Source of the DNA: a virus
Strand: one strand, 5' to 3'
UHGV virus genome: UHGV-0210064
Length of the DNA stretch: 47,461 bases
Every line of letters begins with the position of its first letter. Position 1 is the stretch's first letter. This document shows, in pieces, positions 7,922-18,261 of the stretch. The position numbers were made by a program, and so were the translations under genes. The notes beneath the pieces are model-generated. The model saw nothing but the letters and a program-made list of their open reading frames with translations. It did no database searches and was not told the DNA's origin.

Positions 7922-8058
7922 GCCGTGACGTTATCGAACGCATCCGCGACCGCTGGCAAAAGCTCCGCCTCTGCCGGCACCGCGGAACCGTACTGGTTGA
8001 CTACAAAATATTACGCAATTTCGTCCGTATCTATCATACCCTGGGAGAGACAGCATGA
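7918..8058 (+). CDS. small hypothetical ORF (46 aa) between ninG and Q
   Basis: ATGA overlaps at both ends, 7918-7921 and 8055-8058. Not in the ORF track. Confidence 0.25.
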   Translation: MSRDVIERIRDRWQKLRLCRHRGTVLVDYKILRNFVRIYHTLGETA

Positions 8059-8864
8059 ACCTCGAATCTATCGCCAAATACTTCGCGCCTAAATCACCAA
8101 TGCTGAGCGACTCGCCACGGGCTACTGCATCGGATGGTTTAACCGGCACTGACATCATGGCCGCTCTTGGGCTGGTAAATGCCAAGTGCGGATTCGGCTT
8201 CGACCTCTATCTGGCAAAGATCGGGGTAAGCACACCTGACCGAGCAATGGAGCTACTTTATGAATCAGCAGAGCGACTATCAATCCGCTTTAACATCGTT
8301 TCAGAACTCAGCCAGGACGTTCGCAAAAGAGTTCTCGAAGTTCTGTGCGCTTTTGCATACCAGGATTACACGCGAAGTGCTGCCAGCGTTAGAAAATGCT
8401 CTTGCTGCGATGGGACTGGCTTCACAGAGGCTCAAGTGTTCACCAACAAATGCTCATATCCGTGGGGCAAGCCGCCTTATTGGGCAAAGATGTCCCGAGC
8501 GGTTCGCCCAAGCCATTGGGAGAGCTGGAGCGAAGTGCGCGAGGTGGTCAAAGTTAAATGCTCAACCTGTAACGGAAAGGGTGTTATCAGCAATTCGTGT
8601 CGCTGCAATGGGAAAGGAAAGGTACTGGATAAAGAGACCAGCGAGCGACTTGGCCTACCGGTAATGAAGGTGTGCGATCGCTGCAGCGGAAGAGGCTATG
8701 CGCGCATGAAATTTTCGACGGTAATGGAAGGGGTAAGGGCCGTTGCTGACATTAAGAAAACGGTAGCTTATGAGCAGCTGAAGCCGTTCTTCGAGGAGCT
8801 GGTCTCCGAATGTCACAAACAGGAATCATACGCTGATGTCATTCTCTCCCGGGTGACGAGATGA
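8055..8864 (+). CDS. Q: late-gene antiterminator Q candidate (PF06530-like) with four CxxCxGxG zinc-finger motifs
   Basis: It sits immediately upstream of a PR'-like promoter and tR'-like terminator. Cys-rich C-terminal half. Confidence 0.55.
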   Translation: MNLESIAKYFAPKSPMLSDSPRATASDGLTGTDIMAALGLVNAKCGFGFDLYLAKIGVSTPDRAMELLYESAERLSIRFNIVSELSQDVRKRVLEVLCAFAYQDYTRSAASVRKCSCCDGTGFTEAQVFTNKCSYPWGKPPYWAKMSRAVRPSHWESWSEVREVVKVKCSTCNGKGVISNSCRCNGKGKVLDKETSERLGLPVMKVCDRCSGRGYARMKFSTVMEGVRAVADIKKTVAYEQLKPFFEELVSECHKQESYADVILSRVTR

Positions 8865-11379: not shown

Positions 11380-11503
11380 TAATTATAAAGTTCTGCAAAA
11401 GGCGTCTAAAAAGCGCCATTGACAGAGTTTTATATAAGTTTGTTGATGCCTCGGTGTCGAAATTACCGAGCAAGTATCTTTGGTGCCCAGAGGATTGTTC
11501 TGC

Positions 11504-12139
11504 ATGACTGAAAATGACAATCGCAGACCATACCCTCCCGTCAACTTCACTGGCGAAAACTGGCTGCCGTATACCCGGCTAATCCCTGCTGCCGAAATCG
11601 GCGAATGGGTAAATCAGAACATCCTCTCTGAAGACGGGCGAATCCATAATCACGACCATACGCACTTGCTCGACGCTGATGTCGCGTTCATGTGGGCCTC
11701 TGGCTCATTCGCCAAAAGCGGACGCATTGTACTGGGCCAGTGTGAGCAGGTAATGATGCGCGCAGGCGGCTGGCAGAAGTCCCGCATGGAGCAACAGATG
11801 CATGAATGGTTCGGTCGCATACCGAAGTTCATCATCACCCTGGCTGCTGACTACTGCGAGCAATGCAACGATCTGGAGTTCTGCGCACTGGTGGAGCATG
11901 AACTTTACCACATAGCCCAGGCTACCGATGACTATGGCGCGCCGAAGTTCAACAAAGAGACCGGTATGCCGGTTCTGAAGCTTCGTGGCCATGACGTCGA
12001 GGAATTCGTTGGCGTGGTCCGGCGTTACGGCGCCAGCAAAGACGTGCAGGAAATGGTGGATGCGGCGAACAGGCCGGCGGAGGTTGCTCATATCGATGTT
12101 GCCAGAGCTTGCGGGACGTGCATGCTGAAGTTGGCATAA
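11504..12139 (+). CDS. putative phage metallopeptidase (HExxH)
   Basis: ALVEHELYHIAQ zinc-binding motif. It sits between the lysis and packaging modules. Confidence 0.5.
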   Translation: MTENDNRRPYPPVNFTGENWLPYTRLIPAAEIGEWVNQNILSEDGRIHNHDHTHLLDADVAFMWASGSFAKSGRIVLGQCEQVMMRAGGWQKSRMEQQMHEWFGRIPKFIITLAADYCEQCNDLEFCALVEHELYHIAQATDDYGAPKFNKETGMPVLKLRGHDVEEFVGVVRRYGASKDVQEMVDAANRPAEVAHIDVARACGTCMLKLA

Positions 12140-12657: not shown

Positions 12658-14334
12658 ATGAGCGGAATTATCGAATGGGATGACCTGTCATTCCCGGAGC
12701 GCGTGATCATCCGTTCAAAGTCCACGAAGTCATTCCTGAACTTCACCCGGATATGGTTCGAGCTGATTCAGGGCGACCGGTTGCTGGTTAACTGGCATCA
12801 CCGCCTGATGGCTTCGAAAATTGATGATCTGCTTGCCGGGCGTCTTGTCCCGCGAAACCTGATTATCAACATACCGCCAGGCGGTACGAAAACTGAGTTC
12901 TTCTCCATTCACTTCCCGGCGTATGTCAACGCCCTGGTGCAGGAGAAGCGGCTTAAACGCTTTCGCAACCTGAATATCTCTTTTGCTGACACGCTGGTAA
13001 AGCGTAACAGCCGGCGAACCCGCGACATTATCGCCAGCCGCGAATATCAGGAATTCTGGCCCTGCTCGTTTGGTGTCAACCAGGCGGAAGAGTGGGAGAT
13101 AAAGGATGAACGAGGGCGTTCTATAGGGCAGACGGTATCGCGCTCAAGCAACGGGCAGATCACCGGTGGTCGTGGTGGCTACTACGGACCAGAGTTCTCC
13201 GGCATGGTGATGCTGGACGACTACAACAAGCCGGTGGACATGCTCAGCGAGTCCCGACGCAAAAGCGCGAATACGCTGCTGGTTAACACCATTCGATCGC
13301 GGCGCGGCGATAAGTCGAAAGAGCACCCGACTCCGTTTGTGAGCATTCAGCAGCGCCTGCACACCGACGATGCAACGGGCTTCATGCTTGCCGGCGGAAT
13401 GGGCGTGCCGTTTCACCATGTAGCCATACCGGCCATGATCGACGAGAAGTACATCCAGTCGCTCGATGAGCCATGGCGTTCGCTTTGCTGGGAAACGGTC
13501 AAAGATACCGATTCTGTGGTCGTTGGTGGCGTTCGCTACTGGTCATACTGGCCGCAGATGGAAGACGTTAACGACCTCCTGCAACTGTGGGAAAAGGACC
13601 GCTACACCTTCCTGTCGCAATACCAGCAAAACCCGATGGCGCTGACTGGCGGGATCATCGACACCAGCTGGTTCAGGACGTACACCACGCTGCCGAAGCT
13701 TACGCACCGCGCCGTGTACGTCGATACGAACAGCGGTAAGGTAGAGGACTGGCTGGATTACACCGTGTTTACGCTGGCTGGCATGGGCGTGGACGGGAAT
13801 CTGTACATCATCGACGTCGTTCGCGGTCGATGGGACCCGGAAGACCTCCTGAAGAAAGCGGAAGAGGTTTGGGAAAAATGGCGCCTCTCTGGCTCCATGC
13901 GGGTTATGCCGCTGCGTCATATGGCCATTGAAGAGAAGCAGGCCGGACAGGGCCTCATCACCACTCTGAAAAAACGTAGCCAGACCCCAGGACAACTCGC
14001 CATCCCGGTGAGGGAAATTCCGCGCGGCACCGGGCAGAACAAGCTTGTTCGCTGCCTTAACGTCATCCCCCAAATCAAAACCGGGAAAGTGTTTGTCCCC
14101 GCGACGCACACCGACGACGGACAGAAGCTTTCCAGCATCTTCTACGAGGACGGCACGATCGCAGGCTCAACGGAGTGGGTTCTGACGGCGATGACGGAAT
14201 GCGCTGCTTTCTCCGCTGATGACAGTCACGACAACGACGACATCCTCGATACCTGGATGGACGCAATCGACGACAACCTGATTTCCGGCCCGCAGCCGAT
14301 GGTTATCGACCCGAATCAACTCAGGAGAATTTAA
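12658..14334 (+). CDS. terminase large subunit
   Basis: 558 aa. ATPase and nuclease architecture. Precedes the portal gene. Confidence 0.85.
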   Translation: MSGIIEWDDLSFPERVIIRSKSTKSFLNFTRIWFELIQGDRLLVNWHHRLMASKIDDLLAGRLVPRNLIINIPPGGTKTEFFSIHFPAYVNALVQEKRLKRFRNLNISFADTLVKRNSRRTRDIIASREYQEFWPCSFGVNQAEEWEIKDERGRSIGQTVSRSSNGQITGGRGGYYGPEFSGMVMLDDYNKPVDMLSESRRKSANTLLVNTIRSRRGDKSKEHPTPFVSIQQRLHTDDATGFMLAGGMGVPFHHVAIPAMIDEKYIQSLDEPWRSLCWETVKDTDSVVVGGVRYWSYWPQMEDVNDLLQLWEKDRYTFLSQYQQNPMALTGGIIDTSWFRTYTTLPKLTHRAVYVDTNSGKVEDWLDYTVFTLAGMGVDGNLYIIDVVRGRWDPEDLLKKAEEVWEKWRLSGSMRVMPLRHMAIEEKQAGQGLITTLKKRSQTPGQLAIPVREIPRGTGQNKLVRCLNVIPQIKTGKVFVPATHTDDGQKLSSIFYEDGTIAGSTEWVLTAMTECAAFSADDSHDNDDILDTWMDAIDDNLISGPQPMVIDPNQLRRI

Positions 14335-16281
14335 GTGTGGTGGTTTAAAAAGAAAGAAGTCGCCGCGCCTGAGCCGGCAAAAGAACCTGAAGCACCGAAG
14401 GTCGGGATCAGACCAGAGGCCGTGGCCGAAGTCCGTGCATTACCGAAAAGAGAGTTTCAGCGCTACGAGCCGCCGAAAGGGGTGATCCCAGAGTCTATCA
14501 AAAGCGCCATTCTGGCAATGGACTCCACGCCTTACGATGACCTCAATGCAGCATATGGCGGTTACGGCTACGGTGACTTTGATAGCTTCCCTGGCTATCC
14601 GTACCTGGCCACGCTGGCGCAAAAGCCTGAATATCGCAAGATGGTTGGCACCATCGCGGAAGAAATGACCCGCAAATGGATAAAGCTCAAAACTGTCGGC
14701 GATGAAGACAAGGCGGATCGGGTAAAACAGCTCGAAGAGGCCATGAAGCGGTTTAAGGTGCGCGAGCGCTTTAAAGAAGCCGCAGAGCATGACGGCTACT
14801 TTGGCGGCGGCCAGATTTATATCGACGTTCGTTCGCCGCGGGGAATCTCCGCATGGATGGACGACAACGAGCTGCAATCGAAGCTCTTCATGAGCGACAA
14901 GAAGATCACGAAAGGCAGCCTGCAGGGGTTCAGGGTCATCGAGCCTATCTGGACCTATCCGGGGATTTATAACTCCGACAACCCGCTGAGCCCGGATTTC
15001 TACAAGCCGACTCAGTGGTTTGTCATGGGCCGGACCGTACATGCAAGCCGGATGATTGATTTCGTCTCGCGGCAGGTACCTGATCTGCTGAAAGCATCGT
15101 ATAACTTCCGCGGCCTGTCTCTCTCGCAGATTGCCGAGCCATACGTCAATAACTGGCTTCGCACCCGCGACAGCGTCAGCGACATGATTCACTCGTTCTC
15201 TGTTCCGGTAATCGGAACAAATATGAGCACGATTCTGCAGGGCGGGGCGGCAGATGGCCTTCTGGCAAGGCTTGATGTCTTCAACCGATGCCGTGATAAC
15301 CGTGGCGCATTCGCTAAAGACAACAACCCTACCCAGCCAGAAACGGTTGAGTTCGTTAACGCCCCGCTTAACGGTCTGGATGCCCTGCAGGCACAATCGC
15401 AGGAGCACATGTCAGCGGTTTCGAGCATCCCGCTCGTCAAACTGCTGGGCATCACTCCAAATGGCCTTAACGCAACGTCTGACGGCGAAATCCGCGTTTT
15501 CTACGACTACATTCACGCTCTGCAGCAGTCTGTTTTTAAAGACAACCTGAAGCGTGTGATGGACATCATTCAGCTCTCTGAGTTCGGGGATATTGACGAC
15601 GGCATAACCTTCGACTTTGAGCCGCTGTACGAAATGAGCGCTAAAGAGCGGGCGGAAATTCGCAAAGTAGACGCTGACACGGACGCTGTCTATGTGGCCG
15701 CCAGCGTGCTCTCTGGCAACGAAGTCCGCGAAAAAATTGCCGGTGACCCTGACTCTCCTTATCACTCTCTGGACCTGAATGATGACCTCGAAATCGAAGA
15801 CGACTACGACGAAGAGGAAGAGCCCACCGTGACAGCTAATGACTCGAATCAGATGAATGGGTATGCAAGTGTCAAGCCCGATGCAGAAACGGCGTCTGCC
15901 ATATATTCGCACCTTGAATCTCTTGGCATAAATAATTTAATCGCCCCGAGTGACATGCATGTAACGCTCATGTACTCACGCAACAAGCCAATCACGGTAG
16001 ATGCTGACCCTGTTAGGGTTTATGAGGCACAAATTAGTGGCGATATCGAAATTATGGGCAAGGAGCCTTGGCGAGCCTTGGTTATGCATCTTGAAAGCCC
16101 TGACCTGCAAAAGCGTTTTGCGGAGCTGAAGGCCTCTGGTGCAGAACATTCATACCCAGAATATCGTGCTCATCTTTCCATTAAATACAACCCCGAAAAT
16201 GGCGACTTGCAAAAGCTGAAAGATACTCCGCTACCCATCAAGGTTATTCGTCTAGATGGAGAGGAGTTTAAGCCAATATAG
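14335..16281 (+). CDS. portal protein (DUF1073 type) with a C-terminal ~130-aa 2H-phosphoesterase-like extension
   Basis: GTG start after a RBS (aggag). Residues ~1-470 are portal-like and are followed by an acidic linker. The last 130 aa carry two H-h-[TS]-h motifs (MHVTLMY, AHLSIKY) 72 residues apart. Confidence 0.75.
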   Translation: MWWFKKKEVAAPEPAKEPEAPKVGIRPEAVAEVRALPKREFQRYEPPKGVIPESIKSAILAMDSTPYDDLNAAYGGYGYGDFDSFPGYPYLATLAQKPEYRKMVGTIAEEMTRKWIKLKTVGDEDKADRVKQLEEAMKRFKVRERFKEAAEHDGYFGGGQIYIDVRSPRGISAWMDDNELQSKLFMSDKKITKGSLQGFRVIEPIWTYPGIYNSDNPLSPDFYKPTQWFVMGRTVHASRMIDFVSRQVPDLLKASYNFRGLSLSQIAEPYVNNWLRTRDSVSDMIHSFSVPVIGTNMSTILQGGAADGLLARLDVFNRCRDNRGAFAKDNNPTQPETVEFVNAPLNGLDALQAQSQEHMSAVSSIPLVKLLGITPNGLNATSDGEIRVFYDYIHALQQSVFKDNLKRVMDIIQLSEFGDIDDGITFDFEPLYEMSAKERAEIRKVDADTDAVYVAASVLSGNEVREKIAGDPDSPYHSLDLNDDLEIEDDYDEEEEPTVTANDSNQMNGYASVKPDAETASAIYSHLESLGINNLIAPSDMHVTLMYSRNKPITVDADPVRVYEAQISGDIEIMGKEPWRALVMHLESPDLQKRFAELKASGAEHSYPEYRAHLSIKYNPENGDLQKLKDTPLPIKVIRLDGEEFKPI

Positions 16282-16290
16282 GAATTCCTG

Positions 16291-17088
16291 ATGACCGGAA
16301 AGAAAAAGCCAAAAACTATCCGGCCTATCAGGCCTAACGCTGGCGTAGAAGCATGGTACCGCCGCCAGCTTGATAAGCAGGTGCAGGAAATGCAGGCATC
16401 TGTTGTCTACTGGCTGTCTGCAAACTATCGGGCCAGCGGCGCGGCTGTCGCCATGGATGCATCACCTGCAGTGATGATGCGTAATGCCATGCAGAAACTG
16501 GCTAAGCGCTGGACTCGGCGGTTTGATGACATGGCGCAAAAGCTGGCAGACAGGTTCGCTAACGACGCCATGAAGAACGCAGATGCGTCACTGGCCACAG
16601 CCTTCAAAGATGCGGGGTTTACTGTCGAGTTCAAGATGACCTCGCAGATGAATAACGCTCTTCAGGCGACTATCGCCGAGAATGTCGGCCTTATCCGATC
16701 CATCCCCGAGAAGTATTTCACTGAGGTGGAAGGGCTGGTTATGCGGTCGGTAGCGCGTGGGCGCGACTTGTCCTATCTCACTGATGAACTCCAGAAGCGA
16801 TACGGGATTACCCGGCGCCGTGCGGCGTTCATTGCCCGAGATCAGAACAACAAGGCTACCTCAGTCGTTCAGTCGGCACGGCAGCAGGCGCTTGGCATTA
16901 CGCAAGGTATCTGGAAGCACTCCCACGCAGGCAAAAAGCCTCGCCAGTCCCATGTGAAAGCTAATGGCAGGCTTTTCGACCTCTCGGAGGGGATGCTCAT
17001 TGATGGCGAGCACATCATGCCAGGCGAATTACCAAATTGTCGTTGCACCTGGGAGGCTGTCATTCCAGGGCTTTCAAAACAGGATTGA
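16291..17088 (+). CDS. head morphogenesis protein (Mu gpF / SPP1 gp7 family)
   Basis: Lies after the portal gene. The conserved C-terminal region resembles Phage_Mu_F. Confidence 0.7.
   Translation: MTGKKKPKTIRPIRPNAGVEAWYRRQLDKQVQEMQASVVYWLSANYRASGAAVAMDASPAVMMRNAMQKLAKRWTRRFDDMAQKLADRFANDAMKNADASLATAFKDAGFTVEFKMTSQMNNALQATIAENVGLIRSIPEKYFTEVEGLVMRSVARGRDLSYLTDELQKRYGITRRRAAFIARDQNNKATSVVQSARQQALGITQGIWKHSHAGKKPRQSHVKANGRLFDLSEGMLIDGEHIMPGELPNCRCTWEAVIPGLSKQD

Positions 17089-18261
<1,173 letters not shown>

Follow-up and report, generated by a model that had tools for sequence, protein, structure and literature searches.

The known anti-CBASS proteins (Acb1-4), with which phages counter CBASS, a signalling system against phages that is based on cyclic oligonucleotides, are treated as being made after infection. 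Acb1 itself is represented by the product of T4 gene 57B and by the solved proteins of Erwinia phage FBB1 (PDB 7T26 and 7T27) and Burkholderia phage BCSR5 (9Q2G and 9Q2Y), which are stand-alone proteins of about 150 amino acids (aa) with a compact 2H fold, a pair of HxT/S motifs and a match to the Pfam family PF23474. The words portal, capsid and fused do not occur in the paper reporting the discovery of Acb1. Fusions of 2H domains to portal and MuF proteins were noted by Iyer, Burroughs, Anantharaman and Aravind in 2022 (Viruses 14:1977, PMC9503650), who proposed that the fused domains are packaged in the head, injected and used to counter oligonucleotide immune signalling. Here, we describe a portal protein with a C-terminal Acb1 domain, which is encoded in virus genome UHGV-0210064, a stretch of 47,461 nucleotides (nt; hereafter the window) that represents the complete genome of a lambdoid temperate phage of the Klebsiella type.

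The window protein shares its architecture and the functional proposal with the 2H-portal class of Iyer et al., so that the fusion class, which the original prediction, made from the DNA sequence of the window, held to be undescribed, has been known computationally since 2022 and gains a member here. The earlier description consists of one sentence and a figure and is based on genomics only. The assignment to the Acb1 clade comes from the present analysis, which also adds a gain/loss polymorphism between near-identical phages, evidence for purifying selection, a Mu-type portal, DarA and an XkdF protease as further carriers, and an Acb1-like domain in the solved portal of phage Pam3. In contrast to the stand-alone Acb1 proteins, the window domain forms the C-terminus of a portal, and its gene belongs to the structural cluster of a lambdoid phage that is temperate and has a contractile tail.

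The open reading frame (ORF) of the fusion comprises 648 codons plus stop, begins with a GTG codon that directly abuts the stop of the large terminase gene (TerL), and encodes a 648-aa product in three parts, i.e. a PF06381 portal, an acidic linker and the C-terminal Acb1 domain (Table 1). The portal identity that had been predicted held up in all searches: PF06381 (Phage_portal_3, the DUF1073 or HI1409 family) was matched with 308 bits (cut-off 33.8), the PHROG profile of portals phrog_146 with an E-value of 9e-137, the portal gp19 of Pseudomonas phage E217 (PDB 9b41/8fvh) over residues 84-494 with an E-value of 8.5e-34, and the portal gp3 of cyanophage Pam3 with an E-value of 6e-16. The gene order of the head module (TerL, portal, MuF, protease, cement protein, major capsid protein) is likewise the one expected for a portal. 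By analogy with its homologues, the window portal would form a dodecameric ring at one capsid vertex. The portals of Pam3 (gp3) and of E217 and Pa193 are also of the PF06381 type, and their head module, including the cement protein and the DUF2213 protease, is shared with the window.

Acb1 is the sole Pfam family that was matched by the protein tail. With the whole protein as a query, PF23474 covered residues 510-637 with 84.5 bits (cut-off 27, E-value 8e-24), and the domain alone reached 89 bits (E-value 3e-25), whereas no LigT or 2_5_RNA_ligase2 family was matched in the Pfam search even at E ≤ 10. A phmmer search of the PDB with the single sequence found the FBB1 Acb1 structure 7T26 at an E-value of 2e-9, and a profile built from 22 homologues found it at 7e-21. 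The AlphaFold2 (AF2) model of residues 497-648, based on an alignment of 59 sequences, had a mean predicted local distance difference test (pLDDT) score of 93.6 and a predicted template modelling (TM) score of 0.86. When this model was compared with the PDB by Foldseek, Acb1 structures ranked on top: the five best matches were all Acb1 (9q2y, 7t26, 9q2g and 7t27; TM scores of 0.69-0.79, E-values around 1e-8), representing the two solved proteins from FBB1 and BCSR5. LigT, CPDase, Usb1 and the poxvirus cyclic GMP-AMP (cGAMP) phosphodiesterase came next with TM scores of about 0.45-0.63 and E-values of at least 1e-3, LigT itself scoring about 0.5 compared to 0.7-0.8 for Acb1. Two HxT/S tripeptides by themselves might be a coincidence, which does not apply to the Pfam, phmmer and profile, and AF2 and Foldseek results. 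Of the 2H domain initially described as Acb1/LigT-like, the Acb1 part is thus confirmed, and the LigT part is contradicted by the empty Pfam result and the low TM score.

The domain, which extends to residue 648, opens with the strand GYASVKP near residue 509 (nt 15859), ten residues upstream of the predicted start at residue 519 (nt 15889). Both motifs on which the prediction was based, MHVTLMY and AHLSIKY, are present in frame in the portal C-terminus, but their histidines, H542 and H613, are 71 and not 72 residues apart. We mapped the active-site residues by alignment with full-length FBB1 Acb1, read against the roles of the catalytic His/Thr pairs, the stacking aromatics and the Glu residue in Hobbs et al. 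2022 (PMC9117128). According to this mapping, Y12 corresponds to Y510, H44/T46 to H542/T544, W74 to Y563, F107 to Y607, H113/T115 to H613/S615 and E141 to E643. The window domain is only about 25-32% identical to the solved Acb1 proteins. Three of the four stacking aromatics (Y510, Y563 and Y607) are kept together with the adenine-contacting Glu, and H542, T544, H613 and E643 are invariant among 22 diverse homologues; the tetrad of H542, T544, H613 and S615 is invariant or close to it in our alignments. From these results we conclude that the tail domain is a 2H phosphoesterase of the Acb1 clade, which is well supported, as all sequence and structure comparisons that we ran place it there with the exception of a C-terminal lid Trp (see below). 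The domain is very probably an active Acb1-type phosphodiesterase.

Table 1 Features of the portal-Acb1 locus and its direct neighbours in the window.
Feature	Position	Strand	Evidence or remark
TerL, immediately 5' of the fusion gene	12658..14334	+	phrog_38, E 7e-100
Portal-Acb1 fusion gene	14335..16281	+	648 codons + stop; same ORF in 21 IMG/VR contigs
Portal core, residues 89-451	14599..15687	+	PF06381 Phage_portal_3, E 8.2e-92
Acidic linker, residues 481-508, LNDDLEIEDDYDEEEEPTVTANDSNQMN	15775..15858	+	sequence; predicted disordered
Candidate internal start: Shine-Dalgarno-like GAGGAAGAG and in-frame GTG (codon V499, 15829-15831)	15814..15831	+	weak evidence
Extra segment: Acb1 cassette and rebuilt MuF 5' end	15823..16332	+	replaces ~30 bp of RCIP0114; net insertion ~480 bp
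Acb1-family 2H phosphodiesterase domain, residues 509-648	15859..16278	+	PF23474, AF2, Foldseek, dN/dS
First catalytic motif H542-V-T544 (in MHVTLMY)	15958..15966	+	equivalent to Acb1 H44/T46
Second catalytic motif H613-L-S615 (in AHLSIKY)	16171..16179	+	equivalent to T4 Acb1 H113/T115
E643 codon	16261..16263	+	equivalent to adenine-N6-contacting Glu, T4 E141 / FBB1 E142
MuF-like head morphogenesis / minor head protein, immediately 3' of the fusion gene	16291..17088	+	phrog_324, E 6e-99; PF04233, E 1.6e-13
Head maturation protease (DUF2213), acidic repeat tail	17092..18261	+	phrog_2229, E 3e-168; PF09979, E 2e-47

The Acb1 domain was found to be 99-100% identical in 22 contigs of IMG/VR, which include 21 independent contigs from isolate genomes and metagenomes with the 648-aa ORF and one (L020) that is cut at its 5' end. 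The fusion is also retained in the lineages L022-L024 and in protein P0007, which are 76-79% identical to the window protein. Between the window and these lineages synonymous sites are saturated (rate of synonymous substitutions, dS, about 1.6), and the ratio of non-synonymous to synonymous rates (dN/dS) amounts to 0.066-0.082 in the Acb1 domain, compared to 0.087 in the portal core; the highest dN within the gene, 0.28, belongs to the linker. Both His motifs, located 60-85 residues apart, are kept in all of the 53 related loci. Since the frame has been preserved despite saturated synonymous sites and dN/dS is low, we conclude that the in-frame fusion is genuine, as predicted, and selectively maintained. 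It is recent at the window locus, real, and under purifying selection.

The architecture is widespread and recurrent in IMG/VR, and the rarity that had been assumed for it is not borne out. Of 51 loci retrieved there, 40-41 were PF06381 portal fusions, some with an Acb1 part that is only 25-35% identical, two were DarA fusions, three were fusions to an XkdF-type prohead protease and four were stand-alone, whereby the share of fusions is biased upward and does not represent an unbiased census, as the scan used peptide patterns from the clade of the window. A scan of genome contigs gave two distant loci, and a word-indexed protein search with the domain alone gave three matches. When 1.84 billion representative proteins were searched exhaustively with HMMER, 821 relatives were obtained at E ≤ 1e-3; among the best 150 of these, four clusters at 50% identity consist of PF06381 portal-Acb1 proteins (P0126, P0136, P0137 and P0180), and further partners are DarA_N/DarA_C (P0125, P0128), MuF (P0131), an Alt-like ADP-ribosyltransferase (P0259) and a GNAT acetyltransferase (P0144). 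Alt-type ADP-ribosyltransferases are head-packaged as well, as argued by Iyer et al. (PMC9503650). A prophage of Rhizobium tropici (L004) carries a PF06381 portal-Acb1 fusion, and in a metagenome-assembled genome of Sphingopyxis (L003:2531-4687) the domain is attached to a Mu-type portal (PF06074, E-value 8e-100), which is unrelated to PF06381, so that this fusion arose independently. In GenBank, the domain lies under coding sequences annotated as 'portal protein' in Vibrio phage vB_VpM-PP270 and Aminobacter phage Erebus. Even the solved Pam3 portal gp3 (PDB 8HDS chain A) contains an Acb1-like domain with both His motifs (ELHVTIAYSK and SHISLSL), which matched the Acb1 profile over residues 475-610 of 621 at an E-value of 1.2e-15; a nuclease domain is not mentioned in those passages of the Pam3 structure paper that we consulted on the portal. 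Most of the fusion partners, i.e. two portal families, MuF, DarA and the prohead protease, reside inside the procapsid.

Some of these fusions have features of their own. The ORF at L003 extends about 90 residues beyond the Acb1 domain. In the DarA fusions (L026:1913-5056, L028:1583-4978, P0125 and P0128), which are 900-1130 aa long, the Acb1 domain is internal; P1 DarA acts against restriction from within the capsid, and the fused proteins are candidates for polyvalent packaged anti-defence proteins. The fusions to XkdF-type proteases of the Peptidase_S78_2 family (L038:1023-2351, L048:3560-4996, L053:2909-5014 and protein P0357), some of which have an N-terminal ChaB domain, deserve attention as prohead proteases have been reported as CBASS triggers.

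The domain is missing from the nearest relatives of the window portal. PF06381 is the only family in 119 of the 120 portal homologues with the best scores (56-99% identical), whose lengths are 473-518 aa; the closest, P0004, is 99% identical and ends after 506 aa with ...DYDEEEEADPDDKGGSS. All seven phages in GenBank that match the gene at the DNA level, six Klebsiella phages and Lambdavirus PDP110P1, break off at about nt 1490 of 1947, and five complete E. coli genomes (prophages) match the flanks only, with 219 bp in the record compared to 701 bp in the query. The extra segment of the window (Table 1) has a GC content of 46-48%, compared to about 55% in the flanks, and looks like a horizontally acquired cassette within the structural gene cluster. 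Neither a sigma-70-like promoter nor a plus-strand terminator was found within 15400-16500, for which reason we rejected the idea of an autonomous moron with a promoter and terminator of its own. In Klebsiella phage RCIP0114 (L001 3170-3260), the N-terminal MuF frame overlaps the portal 3' end according to our reading of the alignment, with a later MuF start annotated in the record, whereas the portal and MuF genes of the window are 9 nt apart and MuF has a new N-terminus (MTGKKKPKTIRPIR) preceded by an AGGA ribosome-binding site of its own. A metagenome contig in ENA, k141_516029 (L002), contains the portal-Acb1 junction at 97% identity (113-520), diverges abruptly past ...WRALV and continues with a Terminase_2 gene; it is probably chimeric. 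The UniRef name of the portal P0100, which lacks the Acb1 domain, reads 'anti-CBASS protein Acb1 family ...', and such names may spread to domain-less portals.

The linker contains the acidic stretch DDLEIEDDYDEEEE (residues 483-496), which lies upstream of the domain as initially described. In the AF2 model of the full-length monomer, a low-confidence model (pLDDT 60) that we used for linker disorder only, residues 481-510 reach a pLDDT of about 30, and residues 497-506 reach 53 when the domain is modelled on its own. At the end of the linker, a Shine-Dalgarno (SD)-like sequence precedes the in-frame GTG codon of V499, which is one of three SD-plus-start sites in the whole ORF and is conserved in L022 and L024 (GAAGAGGAGCCNNCCGTG). 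A Cronobacter sakazakii protein in NCBI (P0001, 152 aa, 76% identical), the sole close homologue that appears as a stand-alone protein, is annotated from the equivalent GTG codon. We rejected P0001 as a stand-alone ancestor gene, since its sequence is that of the C-terminal 152 aa encoded by the L024 fusion ORF (L024:2513-4465), beginning at the in-frame GTG, which probably reflects a choice of start codon or a truncation and no true fission. Going by the sequence, the internal GTG at 15829 might also yield free Acb1, while the SD-like string in itself is weak evidence because Glu codons mimic SD sequences.

Regarding the function of the fusion, we propose, in analogy to the late operons of lambdoid phages, that the protein would be produced late and along with those of the head. 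Late expression is probable because the gene lacks a promoter and terminator of its own and is located in the structural cluster 3' of a Q-like antiterminator gene (8055-8864). The C-terminal barrel of the E217 portal 'projects into the head'; long C-terminal extensions that point the same way, with the last 237 residues unresolved, are present in both E217 and Pa193 (PDB 8FVH, 9B41), and the portal passages on Pam3 give the order as the barrel, then the crown, the wing, the stem and lastly the clip from inside to outside. As the C-terminus of a portal faces the capsid interior, every one of the 12 subunits should contribute an Acb1 domain to the procapsid and later to the mature head, and up to 12 copies per virion are a reasonable expectation from portal topology. 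We regard it as likely, on these structural analogies, that the domain is present inside heads. By homology, it would cut the 3'-5' bonds beside adenosine in the cyclic di- and trinucleotides of CBASS via its two histidines and independently of metal, which would blunt abortive-infection signalling. The producing cell would have the enzyme available in the phase in which CBASS reportedly fires: CBASS acts late, escape mutations map to the prohead protease and scaffold, and a preprint from 2026 reports that prohead proteases directly activate CD-NTases. This also makes a role in the producing cell plausible; a protease of the class linked to CBASS triggering (PMC12991175) is encoded two genes 3' of the fusion.

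The fusion itself probably serves as a capsid-targeting device, given that its partners are mostly capsid-internal and that co-expression alone needs no fusion. The same logic of a head-internal carrier that loads an anti-defence activity applies to P1 DarA/Hdf, T4 Alt and the T4 internal proteins, MuF-fused toxins and ICP3 Gp15. Like the head-packaged effector fusions of Iyer et al. and of the MuF-toxin type, the window protein joins an enzymatic domain covalently to a structural protein of the head interior. P1 DarA covers the inside of the capsid and is missing once heads have been emptied, and inhibition of CBASS by a virion ejection protein is on record. In contrast to these packaged effectors, the carrier is here a portal, which is retained in the capsid, so that delivery would need proteolytic release. 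Taken together, we favour, with some reserve, the interpretation of the window protein as a late-expressed, capsid-loaded anti-CBASS Acb1 enzyme. Within this scheme, the fusion would most likely also provide a pre-made dose that comes off the portal and passes into the next host along with the DNA; considered as a separate claim, delivery into the next host is conceivable, but we would not count on it.

A stronger version of the capsid-loading interpretation holds that the tethered Acb1 is true virion cargo, for which the head protease would cut the acidic linker and the enzyme would enter with the DNA, so that the phage would be equipped against CBASS on arrival. For a release of the domain from its portal, the DUF2213 protease is the sole candidate, and it is possible that the very protease class that reportedly triggers CBASS could itself liberate the antidote. 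The fusion to two portal families, MuF, DarA and a prohead protease speaks for an Acb1 branch that is primarily delivered by the capsid, unlike the cytoplasmic T4 Acb1; we put this version forward tentatively. According to a rather unlikely alternative, Acb1 would work in the producing cell only, late in infection, when it is carried by free portal subunits, by rings and by procapsids, with its presence in virions being incidental and the fusion serving co-expression alone. This would agree with the late action of CBASS and its reported triggering by prohead proteases or scaffolds, with the position of the protease gene, with a cassette that has no promoter, and with the fact that no cleavage site or release mechanism is evident. 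Adjacency in an operon would suffice for co-expression, though, the trait common to the fusion partners is residence inside the capsid, and few portal subunits would presumably be made in relation to the enzyme needed in a late-infected cell. Compatible with each of these models, but improbable as the main route, is a nested gene whose principal product would be a free Acb1 of about 150 aa started at GTG 15829, with the fusion as tolerated read-through. We take such an arrangement to be comparable to that of lambda C/Nu3. The SD-like GAGGAAGAG located 6-11 nt 5' of the GTG, the SD-plus-GTG sites of L022 and L024, an ATG with GAGGA at the same place in L027, and the beginning of P0001 at the equivalent codon are consistent with it, whereas poly-Glu codons (GAA/GAG) produce SD-like strings automatically, the more distant portal-Acb1 fusions (13 distinct ORFs) have no such start, and the conservation of the portal frame over saturated synonymous divergence would not be needed for a free product.

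Two further explanations concern the nature of the domain itself. A LigT-type 2',3'-cyclic phosphodiesterase for the healing of tRNAs after their cleavage by anticodon nucleases would share the chemistry of the 2H superfamily, homologues are labelled 'RNA ligase' in PHROG 755 and in many GenBank records, and 2H domains in phage RNA repair are discussed by Iyer et al. (PMC9503650). We rejected this reading on the Pfam and Foldseek evidence given above; the Acb1-specific stacking aromatics and the adenine-contacting Glu are kept, and neither an RNA ligase nor a polynucleotide kinase was found among about 27 ORFs scanned, which do not cover every ORF of the window. RNA repair is in our view very unlikely. 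Still harder to maintain is an artefact through a lost stop, a frameshift or the assembly, or else an inactive structural appendage, for which one could cite that the closest portals end at 506 aa and that the metagenome fragment P0002 is chimeric 3' of the domain. The occurrence of the same 648-aa ORF in 21 independent contigs and of the fusion in diverged lineages, on which we rejected an assembly artefact, as well as a dN/dS of about 0.07 and intact catalytic residues in 53 of 53 related loci, leave this explanation next to no probability.

Several points weigh against the interpretation as a capsid-loaded anti-CBASS enzyme. The Trp of the C-terminal lid (T4 W147; lid residues 145-152) has no counterpart in the domain: the protein ends with I648, five residues past E643, F645 is the sole nearby aromatic, and the PF23474 match stops at profile position 129 of 144, so that substrate range or efficiency may differ from the T4 and FBB1 Acb1. 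A C-terminal ...DW is retained in more distant portal fusions. The closest relatives (the 99% identical portals, the seven GenBank phages and the five E. coli genomes) do without the domain, which is hence dispensable for assembly and readily gained and lost. A portal-tethered domain stays in the capsid unless it is cleaved. Furthermore, the full-length AF2 monomer is of low confidence, the frequency of fusions in IMG/VR is subject to the upward bias mentioned above, and literature searches on an Acb1-portal fusion, virion or packaging gave no experimental study.

Apart from the E217/Pam3-like head module, the window encodes O-like and DnaB-like replication proteins, NinB, the Q-like antiterminator, the terminase subunits TerS and TerL, and a contractile tail, as well as an integrase, a methyltransferase and a CI-like repressor. 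In its C-terminal part, the protease has a very acidic repeat rich in Lys, which is encoded by a 45-bp tandem repeat at 17789-17916 (2.9 copies, 80% matches) with a strong AT skew. The 1119-position profile phrog_30637 is matched by residues 231-490 of the window portal and residues 6-373 of the protease; as it spans a portal (positions 1-259) and a head protease (positions 731-1105), some phages appear to encode a single portal-(MuF?)-protease polyprotein. An ORF at 11480-12139, located just 5' of TerS (DUF2280), matches phrog_513 'transposase' at an E-value of 2e-100, which is an odd label within a packaging module.

If a nuclease is loaded into the capsid via the portal, the onset of counter-defence could precede the expression of any phage gene. 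According to a rough estimate, 12 molecules in a cell of about 1 fL correspond to about 20 nM, which might hold down a micromolar signal over an infection cycle. The temperate phages of the Klebsiella type, which are 95-99% identical in the head module and occur with and without the cassette of about 0.5 kb, represent a natural experiment, and the same architecture is present in Pam3, whose virion has already been solved by electron cryo-microscopy. The anti-defence content of such proteins goes unnoticed at present, since their labels read 'hypothetical', 'DUF1073' or 'portal'.

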